Shown here: positions 2,646 through 45,174 of the stretch, one piece after another | Layout: every line of letters begins with the position of its first letter | Position numbering within the stretch: position 1 is the stretch's first letter | Virus record (IMG/VR): IMGVR_UViG_3300042673_002211 | Span: 1-64,000 of that record | Reading direction: 5' to 3' (one strand) | DNA length: 64,000 nt | Source of the DNA: a virus | Position numbers and translations under genes: made by a program | The notes under the pieces: generated by a model | Told to the model about the DNA's origin: nothing | The model's input: only the letters and a program-made list of their open reading frames with translations | Database searches by the model: none

Positions 2646-3604
2646 AAATTTGCCAGGTACACCCAGCATGTGGGATAGATGTTCCACCAAAAGATTGGGG
2701 TGCAATCGAAAAGATTGTATGGGAACTACATTTAAACTTTTTAGCGCAAGGACATGAGTCAGAAATCAAATTCGCAACTGAGATTAACCCTGGTGACTTT
2801 GATATTGTTCACTGTCATGTTGGTAATCTAGCAACCATGCTCAGGGAACAAAACGTTCCCTATGTTTTCCAATTACACGATCATCATGCTTATCATTATG
2901 GAAAGGATAGTTATGTTTTTAAAGAAAACATGGAAGCTATAGAGGGTTCTATAATGTCTTTAGTTCCCGCTCGTTATTTGGTAGATTATTTTGACCATCC
3001 AAAAGTACAATACTTTGCTCACGGGGTTAACACTAAAGAATTTTACCCTGTAAAAAAGTCTAAACCCACAGAACCTAAACTACTAATGATAGCCAATAAC
3101 GGATTAGCAGGCAATCCAGGCTTTGATAGGAAAGGATTTACATACGGGATAGCTTTAGCTCAATCTCGTAATTTACCTATAACTGTAGCTGGTCCCTCAA
3201 ACAATAAACATTTTTTTAATAATCATTTATGGACCTTGGCTTACCCAAAGCTTAATATTATATTTGATTTACCAAATAGTAAATTATTAGATTTGTACCA
3301 CCAACACGATATATTTATACATCCTACAATGTTGGAAGCAGGCCACCCAAACCTAACCATGATTGAAGCAGCATCGGCAGGTCTACCAGTTATAGCAGAT
3401 TGGGAATCTAAAACAGATTTTCATGGTGGTTGGAGATCACCCCGCGATATATTTGAAATGGCTAAAGGATTAGACGATATAATAAGTAACTGGGATAGCT
3501 ACAGGCAAAGATGTTCAGATACATCTAAAGAGCTAGATTGGTATAATAGAACAAAAGAATTAGTAGAGTTATATGAAAGAAGTTTTGAAGGAAATTTACA
3601 ATAA
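2642..3604 (+). CDS. GT4 family glycosyltransferase
   Basis: VPPKDWGAIEKIV N-terminal motif; EAGHPNLTMIEAASAGLPVI acceptor/donor motif. Confidence 0.85.
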   Translation: MKICQVHPACGIDVPPKDWGAIEKIVWELHLNFLAQGHESEIKFATEINPGDFDIVHCHVGNLATMLREQNVPYVFQLHDHHAYHYGKDSYVFKENMEAIEGSIMSLVPARYLVDYFDHPKVQYFAHGVNTKEFYPVKKSKPTEPKLLMIANNGLAGNPGFDRKGFTYGIALAQSRNLPITVAGPSNNKHFFNNHLWTLAYPKLNIIFDLPNSKLLDLYHQHDIFIHPTMLEAGHPNLTMIEAASAGLPVIADWESKTDFHGGWRSPRDIFEMAKGLDDIISNWDSYRQRCSDTSKELDWYNRTKELVELYERSFEGNLQ

Positions 3605-7530: not shown

Positions 7531-7557
7531 AGCTTGGCTATGCCAGGCTTTTTTTTT
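7531..7557 (+). terminator. intrinsic terminator overlapping a TTG-N20-TA promoter
   Basis: AGCTTGGC-TAT-GCCAGGCT followed by a T run. Confidence 0.8.
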
Positions 7558-7572
7558 ACCTTATAGTCTAAT

Positions 7573-7923
7573 CTATAAAGGACAGGTTTTTTAACATCTA
7601 ACACTACTCAAAAATATGGAAACAATATCATTTCTTTTAGGTGTAGCTGCTGTTATTACTGCTGTAATAGTTGTGGTTACGTTTATGAACTATGTGACAA
7701 TCAAAAATCTCATTAAAGATATAAGAAATCTTGAACAGGTTGAACAAAGGTTATACGATCATTCTAACAATCTAGACCAAACCTTCAGGCAGGAACTAGA
7801 AACTATCTACCGTCATATCGACAGTAGGGTGGATAAGCTTGAAGAAAAAACAAAAAACCAGTTAAAGGACATTACTTTAACTAAATCTAATTAATTAACC
7901 CGTTAGAAAACCTCCCTTTATAG
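7573..7923 (+). repeat. imperfect inverted repeat (7573-7595 / 7902-7923) enclosing the 92-aa gene
   Basis: CTATAAAGGACAGGTTTTTTAAC pairs with GTTAGAAAACCTCCCTTTATAG: 21 pairs including one G-U, with one 2x1 internal loop. Confidence 0.85.
7616..7894 (+). CDS. small membrane-anchored coiled-coil protein
   Basis: N-terminal hydrophobic helix then heptad-rich region; has its own promoter-like site. Confidence 0.7.
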   Translation: METISFLLGVAAVITAVIVVVTFMNYVTIKNLIKDIRNLEQVEQRLYDHSNNLDQTFRQELETIYRHIDSRVDKLEEKTKNQLKDITLTKSN

Positions 7924-8697: not shown

Positions 8698-8980
8698 TTT
8701 TAGAGCAGCTTTATTTAACGAGATACATGAAATAATATTTCATGGCAATGGTGGTTATGATTACTACACAGTCTATAATATGCCTGTATGGTTAAGAAAG
8801 TTTACATTCAATAAACTCCAGGAATATTATACAAAACAAGCTGAATCTCAAAAACAGCAAACCAAATCCGGAAACACAACTAATGTCATCAATGAAGATG
8901 GTACAGTAAATGCTCCTGAGTTTGCTAGAGTAAGTACTCAATATAATAGTAAAGAACAGAAGGCTCCAAAGTATAATTAA
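8665..8980 (+). CDS. frameshift extension of tail assembly chaperone (+1 frame; ORF track 8603..8980)
   Basis: T7 run at 8665-8671 (TTT TTT TGG) links ...DFF to GLTSQ...; YNMPVWLRKF region typical of the pre-tape-measure product. Confidence 0.7.
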
Positions 8981-8995
8981 ACTTTAGGGCTTTCC

Positions 8996-9004
8996 ATATT
9001 TATA
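8996..9004 (+). promoter_or_regulatory. ATATTTATA putative late promoter (tape measure)
   Basis: Recurrent 9-mer, preceded by an imperfect hairpin at ~8959-8994. Confidence 0.6.
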
Positions 9005-9019
9005 ATATATAATTGAATA

Positions 9020-18092: not shown

Positions 18093-18103
18093 AGGGTAAA
18101 TAA

Positions 18104-19372
18104 GTGTTTTGGTTAATAGAAAATAAAGGTCAACTAGAGGAGTTTTGCTATAAGGGTTTTAAAGAAGCGTTTGTGGAGATAATCCCATACTCTCCATTTA
18201 TTCACCCAATCCAAAATTCCATCTGTGCTATCTACATCCGTCCAATAAGGGATGTAAAGGGGTATTTGCTACCCATTTTTCACACAGAGGTAGAAGAAAA
18301 TTTATTTGAGGATAAGGTATTTAAGTTTATAAAGGGGTTAGATAAAATATATTGTAGGGATAAAAAAGAATTTCTCCATTATTTTCCTCTTAAGCAGCTT
18401 ATTGACATAACCCTATCCTCCACTACGTATATACAACCCACTTCGGCTCACGAATTTATATATAGAAAATACCATGATAGACCGGATGTAAACATATTAG
18501 TTCCAATAGTTAAACATTATGAATATTGTGAATCTATTTTTGAGGAATTAGAGCATTTGATAGATGAGCCTGTTAACGAGTTTTATAATCATAAAGTAAG
18601 TTGGATGCTATACGGTATTGAGCAAGCGGGATTAACCGTTGATACCGCGCTATACGAGCAGTACTTTGAGCAAAGCACGGAGGGCGTGGTCTATACTCAA
18701 TATAACTTTAAAACGCTAACAACACGCCCATCAAATACATTCAATAAAATAAATTATGCCGCACTTAGTAAAGAGAACGGGTGTAGGAAAGCTTTTATCC
18801 CGCGTAATTCTTCGCTTGTTGAGCTCGATATTGCAGCTTATCATCCTACTTTGTTGGCTAAGTTGGTTGATTATGATTTTGGTAATGAGGATATTTATAG
18901 TCACTTTTCGCAAATTTACGGATTGGATAGACAAAATGCGAAAATTCTAACCCTACAACAACTATATGGGGGGATTTTACCACAATATGAGGAGCTTGAA
19001 TTTTTTAAAAAGGTAAAAGTATATGTAGATGATTTATGGGAGGTGTTCAATAACTCTGGGCAAGTTATCGTGCCAATTTCAGGATATTGCTTTAAAAAGG
19101 ATAAGCTGGAAAACATGAACCCACAAAAACTGTTAAATTATTTGATTCAAAACTTGGAGACAGCATATAACGTTAATATATTGTGGGAAGTATTCAAGAT
19201 ATTAAAAGATAAAAAAACTAAACTTGTATTATATACATTTGATTCGTTTTTGTTTGATTGGAGCGACGATGAGCGCGAAGTTTTAACAGAGATTCAAAAA
19301 GTATTTAAAAAGTATAAATTAAACATAAAAGTTGCGCATGGAACCAGTTATGACTTTCGACCTACCATATGA
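18104..19372 (+). CDS. short divergent family A DNA polymerase-like protein
   Basis: TTRPSN, RKAFIP, motif A ELDIAAYHP, motif B RQNAKILTLQQLYG, NYLIQ, motif C LYTFDSFLFD. Confidence 0.75.
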   Translation: MFWLIENKGQLEEFCYKGFKEAFVEIIPYSPFIHPIQNSICAIYIRPIRDVKGYLLPIFHTEVEENLFEDKVFKFIKGLDKIYCRDKKEFLHYFPLKQLIDITLSSTTYIQPTSAHEFIYRKYHDRPDVNILVPIVKHYEYCESIFEELEHLIDEPVNEFYNHKVSWMLYGIEQAGLTVDTALYEQYFEQSTEGVVYTQYNFKTLTTRPSNTFNKINYAALSKENGCRKAFIPRNSSLVELDIAAYHPTLLAKLVDYDFGNEDIYSHFSQIYGLDRQNAKILTLQQLYGGILPQYEELEFFKKVKVYVDDLWEVFNNSGQVIVPISGYCFKKDKLENMNPQKLLNYLIQNLETAYNVNILWEVFKILKDKKTKLVLYTFDSFLFDWSDDEREVLTEIQKVFKKYKLNIKVAHGTSYDFRPTI

Positions 19373-19796
19373 TATTTATGGGGTAGACAACCCCATAAAC
19401 TTCACAGATTTGAATAATAAGTTATTTTGTACATTTACCACATTAGAAGGTGTAAATGATTTGGTAGACTCTATTCAAAGAAGTTATACTGTAATGTACA
19501 GTAAGATATTTGTATTAGAGGTTAAAAATAACAATGAGTATGTTTTAACGTACAACATTGAGATGGCTAACATAGCTAGTATCCCAGAAAACACGATTTT
19601 GGTTCATCGTAAAAAAGAATCAAACACTCTATATACAATTAACGCCCTGAACGAGCTTATTAAAAGCTTAAATGGTGGGGTGGTAGATACGCGTTTCCAG
19701 ATTGACTGGCAACACTATAAAAACACCATTTTGCTAACTCAACAAAACGAGTTAAAGCAGCTAAGAACTAAAATCCACGAGATTATTGAACTGTAG
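19350..19796 (+). CDS. hypothetical protein
   Basis: ORF track 19332..19796; start uncertain (ATG 19350 or TTG 19410). Confidence 0.65.
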   Translation: MTFDLPYDIYGVDNPINFTDLNNKLFCTFTTLEGVNDLVDSIQRSYTVMYSKIFVLEVKNNNEYVLTYNIEMANIASIPENTILVHRKKESNTLYTINALNELIKSLNGGVVDTRFQIDWQHYKNTILLTQQNELKQLRTKIHEIIEL

Positions 19797-19813
19797 TAAA
19801 AATTTGTATATTT

Positions 19814-20273
19814 ATAATAAATAATTTAGACACAATGGACAATTTTGATTTTAAAAAATACTTAGTAGAGAATAAACTTACTTTAAATTCTCGTTTAAGT
19901 GAAACTACAACAGATAATGTTAGCGATTATGATGATGGTATATACATTGCAATTAATAAGAAACCAACCCCCGAAATGCAAGCACAGATCGCGAAAGCAG
20001 CTAATGAAGAGTTTTTTGTTGATGAGGAAGAAATAAAATTTGGAGAAAATCCAAACACTGGAGAATATTCAGTATATATACCATTTGCTGGAGATTATTC
20101 TAATATGATGGATGTTTTAAAAAAATTTAAAATAGGGAAACGACCTTACACCAGCCCACATCTTAGGTAAAAGATACATAGGGATAATAAATAATTTAGA
20201 CACAATGGACAATTTTGATTTTAAAAAATACTTAGTAGAGAATAAACTTACTTCTAACTCTCGTTTAAATGAA
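19814..20273 (+). repeat. direct repeat, 70 bp exact (19814-19883 / 20184-20253) extending to ~90 bp with mismatches
   Basis: ATAATAAATAATTTAGACACAATGGACAATTTTGATTTTAAAAAATACTTAGTAGAGAATAAACTTACTT occurs twice, 370 bp apart. Confidence 0.95.
19835..20170 (+). CDS. hypothetical protein with shared MDNFDFKKYLVENKLT leader
   Basis: ORF track; ATATTTATA at 19808-19816. Confidence 0.75.
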   Translation: MDNFDFKKYLVENKLTLNSRLSETTTDNVSDYDDGIYIAINKKPTPEMQAQIAKAANEEFFVDEEEIKFGENPNTGEYSVYIPFAGDYSNMMDVLKKFKIGKRPYTSPHLR

Positions 20274-28136: not shown

Positions 28137-28161
28137 AAGGGCATCTTGTATGCCCTTTTTT
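28137..28161 (+). terminator. intrinsic terminator
   Basis: AAGGGCAT-CTTGT-ATGCCCTT plus T run, abutting ATATTTATA at 28162. Confidence 0.8.
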
Positions 28162-28216
28162 ATATTTATAATAGACCAAAAAGTTTTGAATTTATTAAAT
28201 CTTATAAAGAAAAATA

Positions 28217-29334: not shown

Positions 29335-29359
29335 GAAAGGATATTTTATATTCTTTTTT
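29335..29359 (+). terminator. probable intrinsic terminator
   Basis: AAAGGGATAT-TTT-ATATTCTTT plus T run, abutting ATATTTATA at 29360. Confidence 0.55.
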
Positions 29360-29416
29360 ATATTTATAACAAATGTTTTATCCAATAGTTGTATTTAACT
29401 AACTTAAATTTAAATT

Positions 29417-31753: not shown

Positions 31754-31784
31754 TTGGAAGCCCGTAAGGGCTTTCGTATATTTA
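31754..31784 (+). promoter_or_regulatory. TTG-N20-TATATTTA promoter with embedded GNRA hairpin
   Basis: TTGG at 31754, TA at 31777; GGAAGCCC-GTAA-GGGCTTTC in the spacer. Confidence 0.65.
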
Positions 31785-37730: not shown

Positions 37731-38334
37731 AGATTTAATCACTATTGAACTAATTAATAGTTTAGGTAAACTTCGCTCATTCAATGATCGAGATGAAGCC
37801 ACTCGTAATCCTGAAATGGATTGGGCTGAAATTACAGCAGAAAGAATCGCAAATTTATTTAATTCACAATATGTACCATTCGTCAGCGAGGTTGAAGAGT
37901 TCAATAGCTTAATGAATAAACCAAACAACTATGAACCAGTTATACCAGCCAAACATGAATGGGATTTTATCTACAACTTCATTCTGGAAGAACTTGAGGA
38001 GTATAAACATGCTTGCGAAACAGAAAACATCGTGGAAGTTTTGGATGCACTGTGTGACATTGCTTACGTATCCATTGGGAATGGTGCTATGCTTCATGGT
38101 CTTAAGGATAAAATTTGGCCAGCCTATATGGAAGTTCAGGCATCAAATCTTTCAAAAGCTTGCTCTACACAAGACGAGGCACAAAAGACTGTTGAAATCC
38201 GTTCACAAGAACAAGGCGAAGGCTGTCACTATGAACAGGTTGTTGACAAGTATATTGTATATCGTACTCGAGACAGAAAGGTAATGAAATCAGTAAATTA
38301 CTTCAAACCAGATTTGAAGCAATTTTTTAGCTAA
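37717..38334 (+). CDS. MazG-like / all-alpha NTP pyrophosphohydrolase
   Basis: ILEELEEY...EVLDALCDIAYV...EVQASNLSK...KVMKS. Confidence 0.85.
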   Translation: MSQFKDLITIELINSLGKLRSFNDRDEATRNPEMDWAEITAERIANLFNSQYVPFVSEVEEFNSLMNKPNNYEPVIPAKHEWDFIYNFILEELEEYKHACETENIVEVLDALCDIAYVSIGNGAMLHGLKDKIWPAYMEVQASNLSKACSTQDEAQKTVEIRSQEQGEGCHYEQVVDKYIVYRTRDRKVMKSVNYFKPDLKQFFS

Positions 38335-40172
38335 TGAGTTATAAATCTTGTTTTGTTCAACCCCTTAAGGATAAAAACTATAAAGTTCACTTATGGGATG
38401 ATGGTGGTTATCAAACATTTACGTGGCAATACTCTGCTTATCTAGAGTGCGATAGTCATGATGCTGATAAAAACATTAGAGGACTTAAACAAGAATCTCT
38501 TCGTAAAATAAACGGATGGGATAAAGACAATCCTAAATTACATTTTCACGATATGAGACCTTACCAAAGGTTTTTAATCGATATGTACGGGACAAATGAC
38601 GAGCCTTCCGTAACCCACCAAGAAGTATTCTTTGATATCGAATGTGAAATGGGAGGAGCGCTTACAGAAGACTATATTCGAAGTGCTCCAAAACCAATCA
38701 CCTCAATAGCTTGGTGGCACAAGCAAAAAGACGAATGGAAAATTCTTATTTTAGATAAAAAAGGTGAGCTACAACAAGATAAAGAGGGTAACAGAGAGAT
38801 TATTCCTGTTAAAACAGAAAAAGCCTTACTTGAGGCATTCATAACACACCTCCGCGAAATTAATCCGGATATACTAGTTGGTTACAATAGCGATTACTTT
38901 GATATTCCTTACCTATACTACCGTATTTGTAATGTATTTGATAAAGAAGTAGCAAACATGCTGTCTCCAATCGGAATTGTAATGGATGAATCCGAATGGA
39001 ATAGAGACGGTTGGCTTAAAATTGCGGGTATCGAGTCTTTAGACTACATGAAATTCCATAAAAAGTTTAGCTTTAAGGACGAACCATCATATAAGCTAGA
39101 TGCGTTAGGAAAAAAGTACGTAAACATGGAAAAAATTACGTACGAGGGTAGTTTGGATCGTTTATTCAAAGAAGATAAACAAAAGTTTATAGCCTATAAC
39201 TTTAGGGACGTAGAGATTTTAAAGGCATTGGACGAGAAATTCCAATACCTACCTTTGATAAAAAACCTAGCACATAAAGGTAAAATCAACTATTCAGACG
39301 TCTATAAAAATAGTATGATCCATGACGGAGCTATTTCAGCTTACTTATTATCTCAAGGTATTATACCTCCTCCAAGAGATAGAAACCCTATTATTAAAAA
39401 GAATTACGCAGGTGGTTACTTGTTTTGCCCTAAAGCAGGACTATATAAGTATATGTTTGACGAGGATTTAACCTCGCTATACCCTTCTATTATTAGGTCT
39501 TTAAATATTGGTAAGGAAACGTTAGTGGCTCGGATTTTAATTCCGGATGAGAAAGTAGTAGTAGAAAATAAAGAGATTTTTAATTGCAGGTACGGGTTAA
39601 ATGATCTAATGAAAATGGATCCTAATCTTGAGTTTACGGTTCAAAATGCTAAACGTAAAACCATGCAGATGAAAGTCTATGAGATTATAAATCTAATTAG
39701 GGAATCTGGATTAGCGGTCTCGGCAAACGGGGTTTTATATAGAACAGATTTTGATTCGGTACTTAAAACGATTTTGGCAAAATGGTTTGACGAGAGAGTC
39801 GTCTACAAAGATAAAATGAAGCAAGCCTACAAAGCGGGCAACAAAGCAGACGGTGAAAAATTTCACTTGATGCAACATACCATGAAAATCCTTTTGAACT
39901 CTCTATACGGGGCTACAGCTTTGGGTTCATTTAGATATGGTAACGTAATTTTGAGTGAAAGTATTACTTTATCTGGTCAACGGATTATCCAGGAATCAGC
40001 TTTGTTTGCTAACACTCATATGAATAAAGTAATGAAGGGAGAAATAGAATTTTCTCAATCCCCCCAACCCAAATATCAAGAATCTGGTTCAATTCCAAAT
40101 GAATTAAAAGAAACAATTTGGGATGAGAATAGTAAAAATTTTAGAAATTTAGCAACACACAATTTTGGATAA
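38334..40172 (+). CDS. family B DNA polymerase, N-terminal part (3'-5' exonuclease, motifs A and B)
   Basis: FDIECE, GYNSDYFDIPY, YNFRDV, DLTSLYPSII, KILLNSLYG; lacks motif C. Confidence 0.92.
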   Translation: MSYKSCFVQPLKDKNYKVHLWDDGGYQTFTWQYSAYLECDSHDADKNIRGLKQESLRKINGWDKDNPKLHFHDMRPYQRFLIDMYGTNDEPSVTHQEVFFDIECEMGGALTEDYIRSAPKPITSIAWWHKQKDEWKILILDKKGELQQDKEGNREIIPVKTEKALLEAFITHLREINPDILVGYNSDYFDIPYLYYRICNVFDKEVANMLSPIGIVMDESEWNRDGWLKIAGIESLDYMKFHKKFSFKDEPSYKLDALGKKYVNMEKITYEGSLDRLFKEDKQKFIAYNFRDVEILKALDEKFQYLPLIKNLAHKGKINYSDVYKNSMIHDGAISAYLLSQGIIPPPRDRNPIIKKNYAGGYLFCPKAGLYKYMFDEDLTSLYPSIIRSLNIGKETLVARILIPDEKVVVENKEIFNCRYGLNDLMKMDPNLEFTVQNAKRKTMQMKVYEIINLIRESGLAVSANGVLYRTDFDSVLKTILAKWFDERVVYKDKMKQAYKAGNKADGEKFHLMQHTMKILLNSLYGATALGSFRYGNVILSESITLSGQRIIQESALFANTHMNKVMKGEIEFSQSPQPKYQESGSIPNELKETIWDENSKNFRNLATHNFG

Positions 40173-40193: not shown

Positions 40194-40457
40194 ATGGAAA
40201 ATAAAATTTCAAAACAAACAATCAGATCAGGAGTATCTATTTTTTTATTAGATGAAAAACTTGATAAAGATACTATCATCAGTAAATCTGAAAAATGGTC
40301 AGATAAAGAGATATTATTCTTTAGGAAAATGCTTAGACAAGGGGGGCGCTTTAGTATTAAAGGAGAAAAATTCTATATTACTGTTCCCGAACAAATCTAT
40401 AACCAAAAAGGTGAGATTGAAGGAGTATTCCATAATGAAGAGGAAAGCAACTCTTGA
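40194..40457 (+). CDS. hypothetical protein between polymerase halves
   Basis: ORF track; A-rich leader. Confidence 0.65.
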   Translation: MENKISKQTIRSGVSIFLLDEKLDKDTIISKSEKWSDKEILFFRKMLRQGGRFSIKGEKFYITVPEQIYNQKGEIEGVFHNEEESNS

Positions 40458-40659
40458 TCTACACAGAGTTAAACACGCTGATGTTGAGGATAAGTTGATT
40501 GATTTTTTCTTTTGGCAAAAATTTGATTTTAAAGGGATAAATATTATAACCGGTAATTCTAAAAAAATGCAAGAAATAGTTATGGATTTCCTTGACAAAT
40601 ATGAATTTAAGTATTATATTTCGTCTCATAATTTAGGAGAAATAGTAGTAGTAGGATGA
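40435..40659 (+). CDS. stand-alone Smr-like domain protein
   Basis: TLDLHRVKH...INIITGNS...NLGEIVV matches the Smr LDLHG / IITGxG / NxG layout; ATG at 40435. Confidence 0.65.
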   Translation: MKRKATLDLHRVKHADVEDKLIDFFFWQKFDFKGINIITGNSKKMQEIVMDFLDKYEFKYYISSHNLGEIVVVG

Positions 40660-41585
40660 TTAATTTAGAAAGTACACCTTGGTTTATTTGCAAGGAAGGG
40701 GACACTAACTATTGTGCCTACGTTGATACAGACTCCAATTATTATAATGCCGAGCCTATACTTAGACATCTTTATCCTAATTTTGATGAAATGGGTGAAG
40801 AGGAAAGAGACAACAAGCTTGAAGAAATTGCCCTTAAATATCAAGACTTAATTACGGATTATTATTCCGAAATGTCTACAGACGTATTTAACGTTCCTGT
40901 TCATCATTTTGATATGAAGACCGAATGTATAATTCGTTCGGCTTACTTTAGAGCGACTCGAAGATATGCTCAATGGATTACTAAAAAAGAAGGTGAAGTT
41001 AAAAACGAGCTAGATATTAAAGGTCTGGAGTTTATGAAAGCTAACTTCCCACCAATTTTTGGGAAATTTTTTAATAAGATTTTAAAATCTGCTCTTACAG
41101 GTACCCAACAAGGTGAAATTGATAAATGGCTTTTAGATTTTAGAAAATATATAATGTCTAAAGAATGCGATATTGCAATTTTAGGTAACCCAACTTCGGT
41201 AAAAACCCTAAATGCTTATATTCAAAGTGCACCTAAACCTGGAGAAATGTTTTCTTTAATTAAATCAAAAGCACCAGCTCCAGTTAAAGCAGCTATTAAA
41301 TATAATGATTTATTGTCGTTTTGGGGTCTAGATAAACAACATTCTCGTATTGTACAGGGTGATAAGATTAAATGGATTTATTTAAGAGACAATCCATATA
41401 GAATTGAAGCACTTGCATTTTTAGATTTTGATATGCCAGAAAAGATTCGTATATTATTGGATGAATATGCAGATAAACACAAATCATTTGAATCGATTTT
41501 GGAAAGTAAGCTAGAAGGTTTTTACCATGACCTGGGTTGGTCATTAAATTTGAACCCATATAGAAATATGTTTTTTAGTTTTTAA
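40656..41585 (+). CDS. family B DNA polymerase, C-terminal part (motif C, thumb)
   Basis: YVDTDS, RRYA, LDIKGLE, GDKIKWIYL. Confidence 0.92.
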   Translation: MINLESTPWFICKEGDTNYCAYVDTDSNYYNAEPILRHLYPNFDEMGEEERDNKLEEIALKYQDLITDYYSEMSTDVFNVPVHHFDMKTECIIRSAYFRATRRYAQWITKKEGEVKNELDIKGLEFMKANFPPIFGKFFNKILKSALTGTQQGEIDKWLLDFRKYIMSKECDIAILGNPTSVKTLNAYIQSAPKPGEMFSLIKSKAPAPVKAAIKYNDLLSFWGLDKQHSRIVQGDKIKWIYLRDNPYRIEALAFLDFDMPEKIRILLDEYADKHKSFESILESKLEGFYHDLGWSLNLNPYRNMFFSF

Positions 41586-41588
41586 AAT

Positions 41589-42326
41589 ATGATAAATAAA
41601 GGAGAACTACAGTCAACTATCTCAAAATATAATTTGGGAGGAATGATTGATGCTGTAAAATGGACAGTTCAAAATAAACATCTTACAATTAAATTTAACG
41701 CACCCACTAAGGATATGATTGGGGAGATAACGCATACTTCTTTTGATATAGAGGATTGCGAAATTGCTATTTATAATACCTCTCAGTTAGATAAACTGTT
41801 AGCTATTACCTCGGGTGATGTTAACCTACAATTAGAAAAAATAGGTAAAATATTTGGTAGATTAGTAATCGAGGATACAAATTATAAACTTAATTACTCA
41901 CTATCTGATCTTTTATTAATCCAAAAACCAGGTACAGTAATGGACCCAGACAACTATATTGTTGAAAGTGTCCTCGAATCAGATGCTATTTCGGCTGTTA
42001 TTAGGGCTAAAAATGCTCTACAAAGCGATAACGTAAACTTTACTATCACCACAAATTTTGATGGTGAGCAGGTATTAACAATGATATTTGGTGATAACTC
42101 AACACACACACATAAGGTGGAGTATATCGTTCCTAATACGGTTATAACGGGCAACCAATATAATTTCAACACCCCATTCAATTCTGAAATGATCCGCGTT
42201 ATATTCGCAAATAACAAAGATGCGAATAAAGCCTATATGAGCTTAAATATAAATGGATTGCTTAGACTTATATTTGAGGGTGATAAATGGAAAAGTACTT
42301 ACTATATTATAGGAACCACTAATTAA
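41589..42326 (+). CDS. sliding clamp (gp45/PCNA-like)
   Basis: Size, position after PolB, IAIYNTSQL and C-terminal GLLRLIFEG...STYYI pattern. Confidence 0.7.
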   Translation: MINKGELQSTISKYNLGGMIDAVKWTVQNKHLTIKFNAPTKDMIGEITHTSFDIEDCEIAIYNTSQLDKLLAITSGDVNLQLEKIGKIFGRLVIEDTNYKLNYSLSDLLLIQKPGTVMDPDNYIVESVLESDAISAVIRAKNALQSDNVNFTITTNFDGEQVLTMIFGDNSTHTHKVEYIVPNTVITGNQYNFNTPFNSEMIRVIFANNKDANKAYMSLNINGLLRLIFEGDKWKSTYYIIGTTN

Positions 42327-42386
42327 TAATATTTATTATGGACATAAAATTGTAGCTAGGGCACAAAGTTATGTTAATGTTTAACC

Positions 42387-42403
42387 GCTGATCTTCGGAC
42401 AGC
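42387..42403 (+). promoter_or_regulatory. cUUCGg tetraloop hairpin in hsp20 5' UTR
   Basis: GCTG-A-TC-TTCG-GA-CAGC. Confidence 0.65.
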
Positions 42404-42419
42404 ACAAATTTAAAATGAT

Positions 42420-42851
42420 ATGAGTACATTATTTTTTGAGAGACATATCTCACCATTTGATCTCTTATTTAGAGATTTCTTTAAGTCTGAACTAGACTTT
42501 CAACCGGCTAATGAAGCCAAAATTTCCCACCCTGTAGATATTTACGAAAATAAGGACGGACTGCATTTCGAAATTGCATGTACGGGTCTTACTAAATCTG
42601 ATATTGAAATCAATATCGAAGGGGATATCCTTAAAATCAGTTATAATAAATCAAAGGACGAAACATGTTGTGAAGTAGATGATTGCAAATACATTCACAA
42701 AGGAATTGCAAAGCGTTCTTTTAATTTAGGTTATAAAGTCGCTTCCAAGTTTAATCTCCCAGAATCATCAGCTGAAATGAAAGATGGACTTCTTAAGATT
42801 TCAGTACCGTTTGCTGAAGAATCAAAACCAAAATCACTTAAAATAAAGTAA
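42420..42851 (+). CDS. small heat shock protein (Hsp20/IbpA-like)
   Basis: HPVDIYE, EIACTGL, YIHKGIAKRSF, AEMKDGLLKI. Confidence 0.93.
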   Translation: MSTLFFERHISPFDLLFRDFFKSELDFQPANEAKISHPVDIYENKDGLHFEIACTGLTKSDIEINIEGDILKISYNKSKDETCCEVDDCKYIHKGIAKRSFNLGYKVASKFNLPESSAEMKDGLLKISVPFAEESKPKSLKIK

Positions 42852-42921
42852 TAGTTTTCGATTAAAAACGTGCCCTAGCGCAATTTTGGTCGTATATTCA
42901 CGTTATAATTAAATAAATGTT

Positions 42922-43205
42922 ATGAGGACAAAAGAATCCAAACAGTACACTCGCTATATCAAAGACCCCCTAATTGAACCATACTATATTCAATTAGATG
43001 ACTATTGTTATGCGGTGCAAAAAGGTATTACCGCTGGAGAAAGCGGTAAAGAATACCAACAAACCCTTGGATATTATACTAGTCTAAGCAATGCGCTTGA
43101 AGCCATTGCTCGAGATGAAGCTATGAGTGTCAGCTATGACACGATCCAAGAATTTATCAACACCTATAATCAAATCATGAATCGTTTAAGTAAAATCATT
43201 AAAAT

Positions 43206-43209
<4 letters not shown>
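42922..43209 (+). CDS. hypothetical protein
   Basis: ORF track; promoter-like GTG-N20-TATATTCA at 42870-42900. Confidence 0.7.

Positions 43210-45173
<1,964 letters not shown>

Positions 45174-45174
<1 letters not shown>

Follow-up and report, generated by a model that had tools for sequence, protein, structure and literature searches.

The window analysed here comprises the first 64,000 nucleotides of the IMG/VR virus record IMGVR_UViG_3300042673_002211, a linear virus genome of 73,230 bp with 33% G+C and an estimated completeness of 45%. It contains a gene for a small heat-shock protein (hsp20) that lies between two complementary stretches of its own 5' and 3' untranslated regions (UTRs), which as RNA would form a long-range helix. 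The features of the locus, all on the + strand, are the following.

42328-42339, +, promoter-like motif AATATTTATTAT upstream of hsp20, 2 mismatches to TATATTTATAAT
42341-42364, +, 5' arm of the hsp20 helix, with an A/U-rich outer half and the G/C-rich inner core GCTAGGGCAC
42387-42403, +, 5'-UTR hairpin GCTGATCTTCGGACAGC of 17 nt (loop UUCG, one bulged A); conserved
42420-42851, +, hsp20, open reading frame (ORF) for a small heat-shock protein of 143 aa (Pfam HSP20, E 1.3e-11)
42870-42891, +, 3' arm of the hsp20 helix, which begins 18 nt past the stop codon
42889-42901, +, promoter-like motif GTCGTATATTCAC of the next gene, which overlaps the final 3 bases of the 3' arm

The hsp20 helix and its conservation in related phages

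The two arms form 22 base pairs, including two G-U pairs, with two bulged A on the 5' strand; this pairing, proposed in a preliminary description of the DNA, is evident both from the sequence and from the duplex calculation. A perfect 10-bp core joins GCTAGGGCAC to GTGCCCTAGC, the arms are separated by 505 nt, and the sole gene inside is hsp20, as had been claimed. The predicted energy of the arms-only duplex is -33.0 kcal/mol as + strand RNA and -27.8 kcal/mol as minus-strand RNA. When the entire region (42329-42900) is folded, the helix is present in both the minimum free energy (MFE) structure and the centroid structure (MFE, -132.5 kcal/mol; z, -3.40; equalled by 0 of 100 shuffles). No Rfam family reaches its gathering score.

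The helix ranks fifth in strength among the 2863 inverted seeds of this genome that are no more than 1.5 kb apart, and its strength alone is not beyond chance, because a duplex of at least this strength arose in 9 of 12 dinucleotide shuffles of the genome. Among the 600 ordered duplexes between 25 intergenic regions, it is the strongest; by a compact-helix score calculated for 496 junction pairs, 23 of which enclose one or two genes, it comes third, and a second element at 7573-7923 comes seventh. What is unusual about the hsp20 helix in this genome is its position, not its strength. Both arm regions also fold locally in the window (z, -2.50 and -3.04), with the complementary cores placed within or close to the loops. 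The idea of kissing hairpins was nevertheless abandoned, because such local folds are not conserved among the 11 arm types described below (mean z, -0.32 for the 5' and +0.30 for the 3' arm region).

The decisive support for the predicted helix comes from the comparison with relatives. Scanning IMG/VR with the hsp20 protein yielded 80 loci; 39 had 65-98% identity, and 33 of these 39 included enough of both flanks. The comparison comprised 25 non-identical related sequences, whose arms were sorted manually into 11 types (A to K). The arm flanks are almost wholly different between loci, but at every locus the 5' flank stays complementary to the 3' flank, as in the following pairs.

ACGACCCAAGGGCGCA with TGCGCCCTAGGGTTGG
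CTTTAGGGAGC with GCTCCCTAAAG
GACCTACGGGCACCCC with GGGGTGCCCGTTTAGGTT
GTGAAACCTTAGGGAAC with GTTCTCCTAAGGTTTCAC
GAGAGCAGGGACC with GGTCCCTGTTGCTCT

All 25 sequences possess the helix, with a length of 15-31 bp (median 23). Cognate arms form duplexes of -30.8 +/- 3.1 kcal/mol (n = 23), whereas arms of different types reach only -16.6 +/- 5.4 kcal/mol (n = 462). When representatives of the types were paired in non-cognate combinations, 4 of 110 matched the cognate energy, all four between visibly related types.

Covariation between the arms is also apparent in formal counts. RNAalifold predicted five long-range pairs on a plain MAFFT alignment of the 25 sequences; in three of these pairs, both partners have changed (in 7, 5, and 5 sequences). 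The formal count covers a 14-pair helix and was restricted to the 18 sequences in MAFFT register because in types A, E, and F the 3' arm was misaligned by MAFFT. In this set, 87.4% of the cells are paired (shuffles, 78.5 +/- 1.1), 34 cells have changed on both sides (shuffles, 12.2), and the covariation score is 0.264 (shuffles, 0.126), in each case with 0 of 500 shuffles as high, although kinship among the sequences and the derivation of the structure from the same data inflate these figures. Controls in which the arms were slid against each other have 34-53% of the cells paired, and changes on both sides occur in 7 of the 14 long-range pairs. The arms thus covary by the covariation score, and the homologues do carry the compensatory changes on which the preliminary description had staked its pairing. 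A variant in the RNA-library contigs (42880 G>A) converts a G-U pair of the window to A-U, and the same change is found in one of the related loci (L014).

A helix that acts as RNA should tolerate G-U but not A-C on the strand that is transcribed. The two were counted in the helices with a strand-blind scoring that treats them alike, with the following results.

hsp20 helices, 25 sequences: G-U 21, A-C 7 (binomial p 0.0125)
hsp20 helices, one sequence for each of the 11 types: G-U 10, A-C 1 (binomial p 0.012)
second element, 6 sequences: G-U 16, A-C 4 (binomial p 0.012)

A count on a wider alignment (47 G-U vs 25 A-C) was not relied on because it extended into the promoter-like motifs. The excess of G-U argues for a + strand RNA and not for a repeat at the DNA level. 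Because the arms covary and G-U is favoured on the coding strand, the pairing is, as judged from sequence comparison, a selected feature at the RNA level, and the hsp20 helix a real RNA structure.

The helix is absent from distant phage hsp20 genes, where the score of cognate flanks (26.2) does not exceed that of non-cognate flanks (27.4; 33 unique homologues; 36 of 41 loci had both flanks, and ORF starts were set mechanically). The RNA clamp therefore belongs to this phage clade and not to hsp20 as such, which rules out that it is a general property of phage hsp20. No cultured phage with the hsp20 helix was found in the phage collection, where the matches to hsp20 have less than 34% identity; Flavobacterium phage immuto, the nearest cultured phage by GroEL (58% identity), possesses GroES-GroEL in a locus without hsp20.

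Placement of the arms and genomic context

The position of the arms relative to the gene is conserved. In all 25 sequences, the 5' arm starts 0-8 nt past the promoter-like motif, which agrees with the earlier proposal that the left arm begins at the predicted start of the message, and ends 28-64 nt before the ATG, never covering the start region. The 3' arm starts 1-18 nt past the stop codon (1-6 nt in 17 of the 25). The position of the next promoter-like motif is not conserved: among the 11 types, whose flanks were read by eye, it lies after or over the 3' arm in seven, before it in two, and is absent from two; one arm type has a start codon 5 nt downstream of the 3' arm. The overlap of the right arm with the next promoter, which had been taken as part of the design, does not hold up as such. 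In those types where the motif is missing or precedes the 3' arm, transcription must therefore run past the arm, and transcription probably often continues beyond it. The helix would be better seen as setting hsp20 apart within the transcription unit of the chaperone genes, and less as an end structure linked to the promoter that follows.

The motif upstream of hsp20 is replaced at the same place in relatives by TATATGTATAA or by the exact TATATTTATAAT. With at most one mismatch, TATATTTATAAT has seven + strand intergenic copies just upstream of seven other genes of the window (4828, 6984, 8995, 11455, 19807, 28161, and 29359, +), immediately in front of structural genes. Two copies form terminator-promoter units with a T-run hairpin that immediately precedes them (28138-28172 and 29340-29370). 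A second promoter-like motif, TTCGTATATTCAC, which precedes the gene next to hsp20 and a few others, may mark a different temporal class; it is located about 20 nt upstream of short genes at 31773, 36999, and 42889 of the window and at 70630-70650 and 71100-71115 of the genome.

Between the 5' arm and the 5'-UTR hairpin lies a block, TGTTTAACC (TTTAACC at 42380-42386 of the window), that is nearly invariant across unrelated arm types. The hairpin, which is found at the same place in L001-L035, keeps its pairs through compensatory changes, with the stems GCTG/CAGC, GGTT/AACC, and GTTG/CAAC (92.9% paired in the formal count). Some relatives have instead a ATCTTAGGAG or ATCTAAGGA block at Shine-Dalgarno distance from the ATG.

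The hsp20 gene is the first of a chaperone module (hsp20, a gene for a 95-aa protein [p95], GroES, and GroEL; 42420-45174) that is kept in all related contigs. At the hsp20 loci, from which the context was read, p95, GroES, and GroEL are located downstream of hsp20 in 38 of 39 cases (the exception is L033; L035 is cut within GroES), and a sliding-clamp gene upstream in 27 of 39, with mostly short or interrupted upstream flanks in the rest; a search with the sliding-clamp protein gave four loci. Among the relatives, hsp20 has diverged less (65-98% identity) than the sliding clamp next to it (35-83%) or the 95-aa protein (26-90%). Synteny is conserved although the neighbouring proteins have diverged to 27-53% identity; the helix is therefore old and vertically inherited and does not travel on a mobile cassette. 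None of the 39 loci contains an inverted copy of hsp20, with all matches on one strand, which speaks against the inversion at the DNA level considered earlier and, together with the conserved gene order, upholds the statement that the helices do not represent one mobile element family.

The record encodes about 100 ORFs, all on the + strand by simple ORF calling, including those for a tail sheath, a split family-B DNA polymerase, a sliding-clamp-like protein, hsp20, GroES, and GroEL. The closest GroEL homologs in the phage collection are those of Flavobacterium phages (58% identity), and near-identical DNA is present in metagenomes and metatranscriptomes of lake water. The region occurs as contigs in all four metatranscriptome runs examined. 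One contig of an RNA library spans 42306-43306 and includes both arms and the next gene, which hints at co-transcription of the arms but does not prove a single transcript; carry-over of DNA is also possible. Contig ends near 42346, 42869-42910, and 42403 were considered as transcript ends and rejected because they coincide with strain variants or adapter.

Other observations concern the remainder of the window. Two ORFs (38334-40172 and 40656-41585) together make up the split family-B DNA polymerase; between them lies an ORF of 135 aa (40252-40659) without a Pfam match, which in relatives is found at variable distance or is missing, as for a mobile insert. Four regions (2646-3572, 8698-9019, 18093-18604, and 19373-19834) contain no ATG-started ORF of at least 40 aa by the simple ORF call and may represent genes with other start codons or RNAs.

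A second gene-enclosing helix

The second element encloses a different gene, again on the + strand.

7573-7595, +, 5' arm of the second helix, with a boxA-like inner end GTTTTTTAACA at 7586-7596
7616-7894, +, gene for a protein of 92 aa with an N-terminal hydrophobic stretch; no Pfam family at cut-off
7902-7923, +, 3' arm of the second helix, 8 nt past the stop codon, directly abutting the next promoter-like motif

The duplex between its arms (-24.7 kcal/mol) encloses only this one short gene and is unrelated in sequence to the hsp20 helix; the element is as the preliminary description had it, and it covaries too. Together with the window, 17 related loci represent six distinct flank sets with three very different arm pairs, all of which are still complementary. 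Just upstream of its promoter-like motif and 5' arm lies a canonical intrinsic terminator (7531-7557; AGCTTGGC-TAT-GCCAGGCT and eight T).

At the inner end of the 5' arm, the window has GTTTTTTAACA, L090 has GTTCTTTGACA, and L085 and L092 have GTGCTTTGACA. The versions of the window and L090 each have one mismatch to GYTCTTTAANA, the gamma-proteobacterial boxA consensus as given in the available text of PMC5725501, and the L090 version has one mismatch to the Flavobacteriaceae spacer box GTTCATTGACA. A search for rRNA genes in four metagenome-assembled genomes found none, and genomes of the same family were used instead. Among the six Flavobacteriaceae 23S loci fetched, four (L124 and L126-L128) carry GTTCATTGACATATTG in the 16S-23S spacer; L123 and L125 gave no reading. 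In all three loci that include the trailer, GTTCATTGACATATTG forms the 5' strand of the helix between the 23S leader and trailer. In L124 and L126-L128, it lies downstream of tRNA-Ala and pairs with the trailer CAATATGTTAA through a G-U pair. Because its 5' strand is boxA-like, as in the 23S helix of Flavobacteriaceae, the second phage element looks like a miniature of that helix. Across the window, the boxA pattern occurs 20 times against an expectation of 25.7, which is no enrichment. A boxA- or nut-like site in the hsp20 leader was considered and rejected; the candidate, TGTTTAACC, matches 7 of 11 positions of the gamma-proteobacterial consensus and 5 of 11 of the Flavobacteriaceae box, as counted by eye.

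Possible functions and comparison with known systems

The reading that we favour, with a probability of roughly 0.55, is that the helix serves end protection and/or processing and would thereby uncouple the amount of hsp20 mRNA from that of its neighbours. The start of the hsp20 message would pair with a stretch just past its stop codon and close the whole message into a loop. Once the 3' arm is transcribed, the 5' end would be buried in the helix and shielded from decay that initiates at the 5' end, and the helix would delimit hsp20 as a separate unit within the hsp20-p95-GroES-GroEL transcript. A double-strand RNase (host RNase III, for example) may or may not cut it, as happens to the leader-trailer stalks of rRNA; the outcome would be an amount and lifetime of hsp20 mRNA set independently of the neighbouring genes. 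The second helix would act in the same way, with the addition of a boxA-like 5' strand.

Several points weigh against this reading. In the 18-sequence count, the number of pairs with changes on both sides (8 vs 6.2; 61 of 500 shuffles as high) and the number of further pair types (19 vs 17.7; 155 of 500 shuffles) are not significant; the count omits 7 of the 25 sequences, namely those of types A, E, and F, among them the window's own type, and the binomial p values given above are optimistic because the sequences are related. If transcription starts 6-8 nt past the motif, the transcript from the hsp20 promoter would lack the outermost pairs in some types. Contigs from RNA libraries, with the possible carry-over of DNA, cannot show a transcript end, a cleavage site, or a half-life. 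A gene for RNase III was not found in this 45%-complete record, whereas a Bacteroides control genome gave one; cleavage would therefore need the host enzyme. With only 15-19 bp, the helices of several arm types are short compared with classical substrates of RNase III. Their length is close to the minimum of 17 bp reported for the E. coli 16S stalk (PMC11404451, in the text available).

In a more far-reaching version, which we consider speculative and rather doubtful, this phage lineage would give certain protein-coding genes the form of rRNA-like precursors: a helix of leader and trailer, joined by a boxA mimic in one case, might recruit the transcription and chaperone complex of host rRNA as well as RNase III, giving rise to excised, end-paired, long-lived mRNAs from read-through transcripts.

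The pairing might instead be a device of translation, either by bringing the stop codon to the 5' UTR for re-initiation in a closed loop or by coupling the opening of the helix to the passage of ribosomes. In 17 of 25 sequences, the 3' arm lies within reach of a terminating ribosome, judged from its known footprint (1-6 nt past the stop codon), and small heat-shock proteins are needed in bulk. The gap is 17-18 nt in the window's type and 13-18 nt in types E and F, however; the 5' arm stops well short of the ATG (28-64 nt) and leaves the start region uncovered, and to our knowledge there is no bacterial precedent for ribosome recycling by end-pairing. We regard this explanation as unlikely.

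A role in transcription, in which the helix (in the second element together with boxA) recruits the antitermination-chaperone complex of host rRNA or mimics it, or serves as a long-range terminator or insulator, seems distinctly unlikely. It would accommodate the boxA-like inner 5' arm of the second element, one mismatch from the consensus in PMC5725501, the similarity of the L090 version GTTCTTTGACA to GTTCATTGACA (one mismatch), a box that is also the 5' strand of the Flavobacteriaceae 23S helix, and the location of the 3' arms at the site where other phage genes have a hairpin terminator followed by a promoter. By contrast, the best boxA candidate in the hsp20 leader, TGTTTAACC (7 of 11 by eye), differs at a position that was mutated in PMC5725501, as far as the available text of that study goes; the boxA pattern is no more frequent than expected (20 vs 25.7); and there is no consistent U-tract after the 3' arms.

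A feature of the DNA itself, be it a gene cassette with inverted repeats at its ends, a segment that can invert, or a pair of operators bound by a dimeric protein, is highly improbable. The arms are an inverted repeat by definition, and the arm regions of the window are partly palindromic (CTAG centre; local hairpins with z of -2.5 and -3.0), but this palindromy is not conserved (mean z, -0.32 and +0.30 for the 5' and 3' sides of the 11 types). The arms invariably have AGGG on the left and CCCT on the right; the excess of G-U over A-C is expected only of + strand RNA, and mismatches are not strand-symmetric. Neither a variable context nor empty sites nor both orientations, as known of mobile or invertible DNA, were encountered: synteny persists despite the divergence of the neighbours, without an inverted copy in 39 loci.

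An RNA thermometer or switch that frees hsp20 for translation on heat can practically be dismissed: bacterial genes of the hsp20 family often carry thermometers (ROSE, fourU), and the 5' arm of the window has a local alternative fold, but that fold is not conserved, the arms leave the start region unpaired where a thermometer would have a weak helix melting at physiological temperature, and the long-range helix stays in the predicted MFE fold from 10 to 75 C (arms-only duplex still -11.9 kcal/mol at 75 C), which gives no support to the temperature-dependent release suggested earlier.

If the helix does set stability or processing, as we favour, it would illustrate how phages with long transcription units on one strand tune single genes, and it would represent a compact, portable stabilising module for Bacteroidota, where tools based on Shine-Dalgarno sequences work poorly. 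The boxA-like second element would tie the handling of mRNA to the machinery of rRNA, and if the rRNA-like precursors were real, they would amount to a general phage strategy for setting the expression of single genes independently of the surrounding operon.

Studied examples of a bacterial-type mRNA whose ends pair with each other are few (hbs, icaR, and hok), and full-text literature searches (main texts) retrieved no published mRNA of a DNA phage that is closed by its ends. In the present case, end pairing is fixed across a whole clade of uncultured freshwater phages, with abundant covariation; two helices of unrelated sequence in one genome provide a natural series of compensatory mutants. 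The phage gene shares with hbs, icaR, and hok the complementary 5' and 3' untranslated stretches of the same gene (22 bp, -33.0 kcal/mol), and their pairing is maintained in evolution (-30.8 kcal/mol for cognate vs -16.6 kcal/mol for non-cognate arms).

In Bacillus subtilis hbs, a 14-bp interaction of the 5' UTR with the 3' UTR modulates the access and cleavage of RNase Y (Braun, Durand, Condon 2017; PMC5737220). The likeness is the pairing of both UTRs of one short message; according to the available parts of that study, hbs is monocistronic and highly expressed, and the pairing, which lies partly over the RNase Y site, modulates access of the endonuclease to the leader, whereas the phage helix is 15-31 bp long, located at the presumed 5' end, and extensively covarying. 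The hok mRNA of plasmid R1 is stabilised in its closed full-length form by the tac/fbi stem (PMC9841398, citing Thisted 1995 and Franch 1997). Its 5' end also pairs with its 3' end, and in the window the 5' arm likewise has a local alternative partner, which, unlike in hok, is not conserved; as described there, the closed form of hok silences translation by ucb/SD (Shine-Dalgarno) pairing and is opened by 3' trimming, whereas the start region of the phage message is not involved. In icaR of Staphylococcus aureus, a UCCCC of the 3' UTR pairs with the Shine-Dalgarno region, blocks initiation, and creates a site for RNase III (PMC3868564, in the text available). Again, intramolecular pairing between UTRs yields double-stranded RNA, but unlike in icaR and hok, the ribosome-binding region is not sequestered in any of the 25 phage sequences, with the 5' arm ending 28-64 nt upstream of the ATG.

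Small modules of promoter and RNA structure at gene boundaries also occur in T4-type phages, where repeated promoter-early stem-loops (PeSLs) act as local terminators and recombine as DNA, shuffling genes (PMC2839356, as far as the text available extends). The phage helices differ from PeSLs in the unique arm pair of each gene, the fixed gene order, and the long range of the RNA pairing; there is no repeated module, since the arms of the two elements are unrelated and the arm regions have no conserved local folds.

The leader-trailer helices of rRNA are cut by RNase III and also act independently of it (PMC11404451 and PMC10250234, in the text available). Like them, both the hsp20 helix and the second element enclose a whole functional RNA by a long-range helix, and the second phage element, and only that element, shares with the 23S helix of Flavobacteriaceae a boxA-like block as its 5' strand. 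Unlike rRNA, the cargo is a protein-coding gene, and the hsp20 helix has no boxA (best match 7 of 11).

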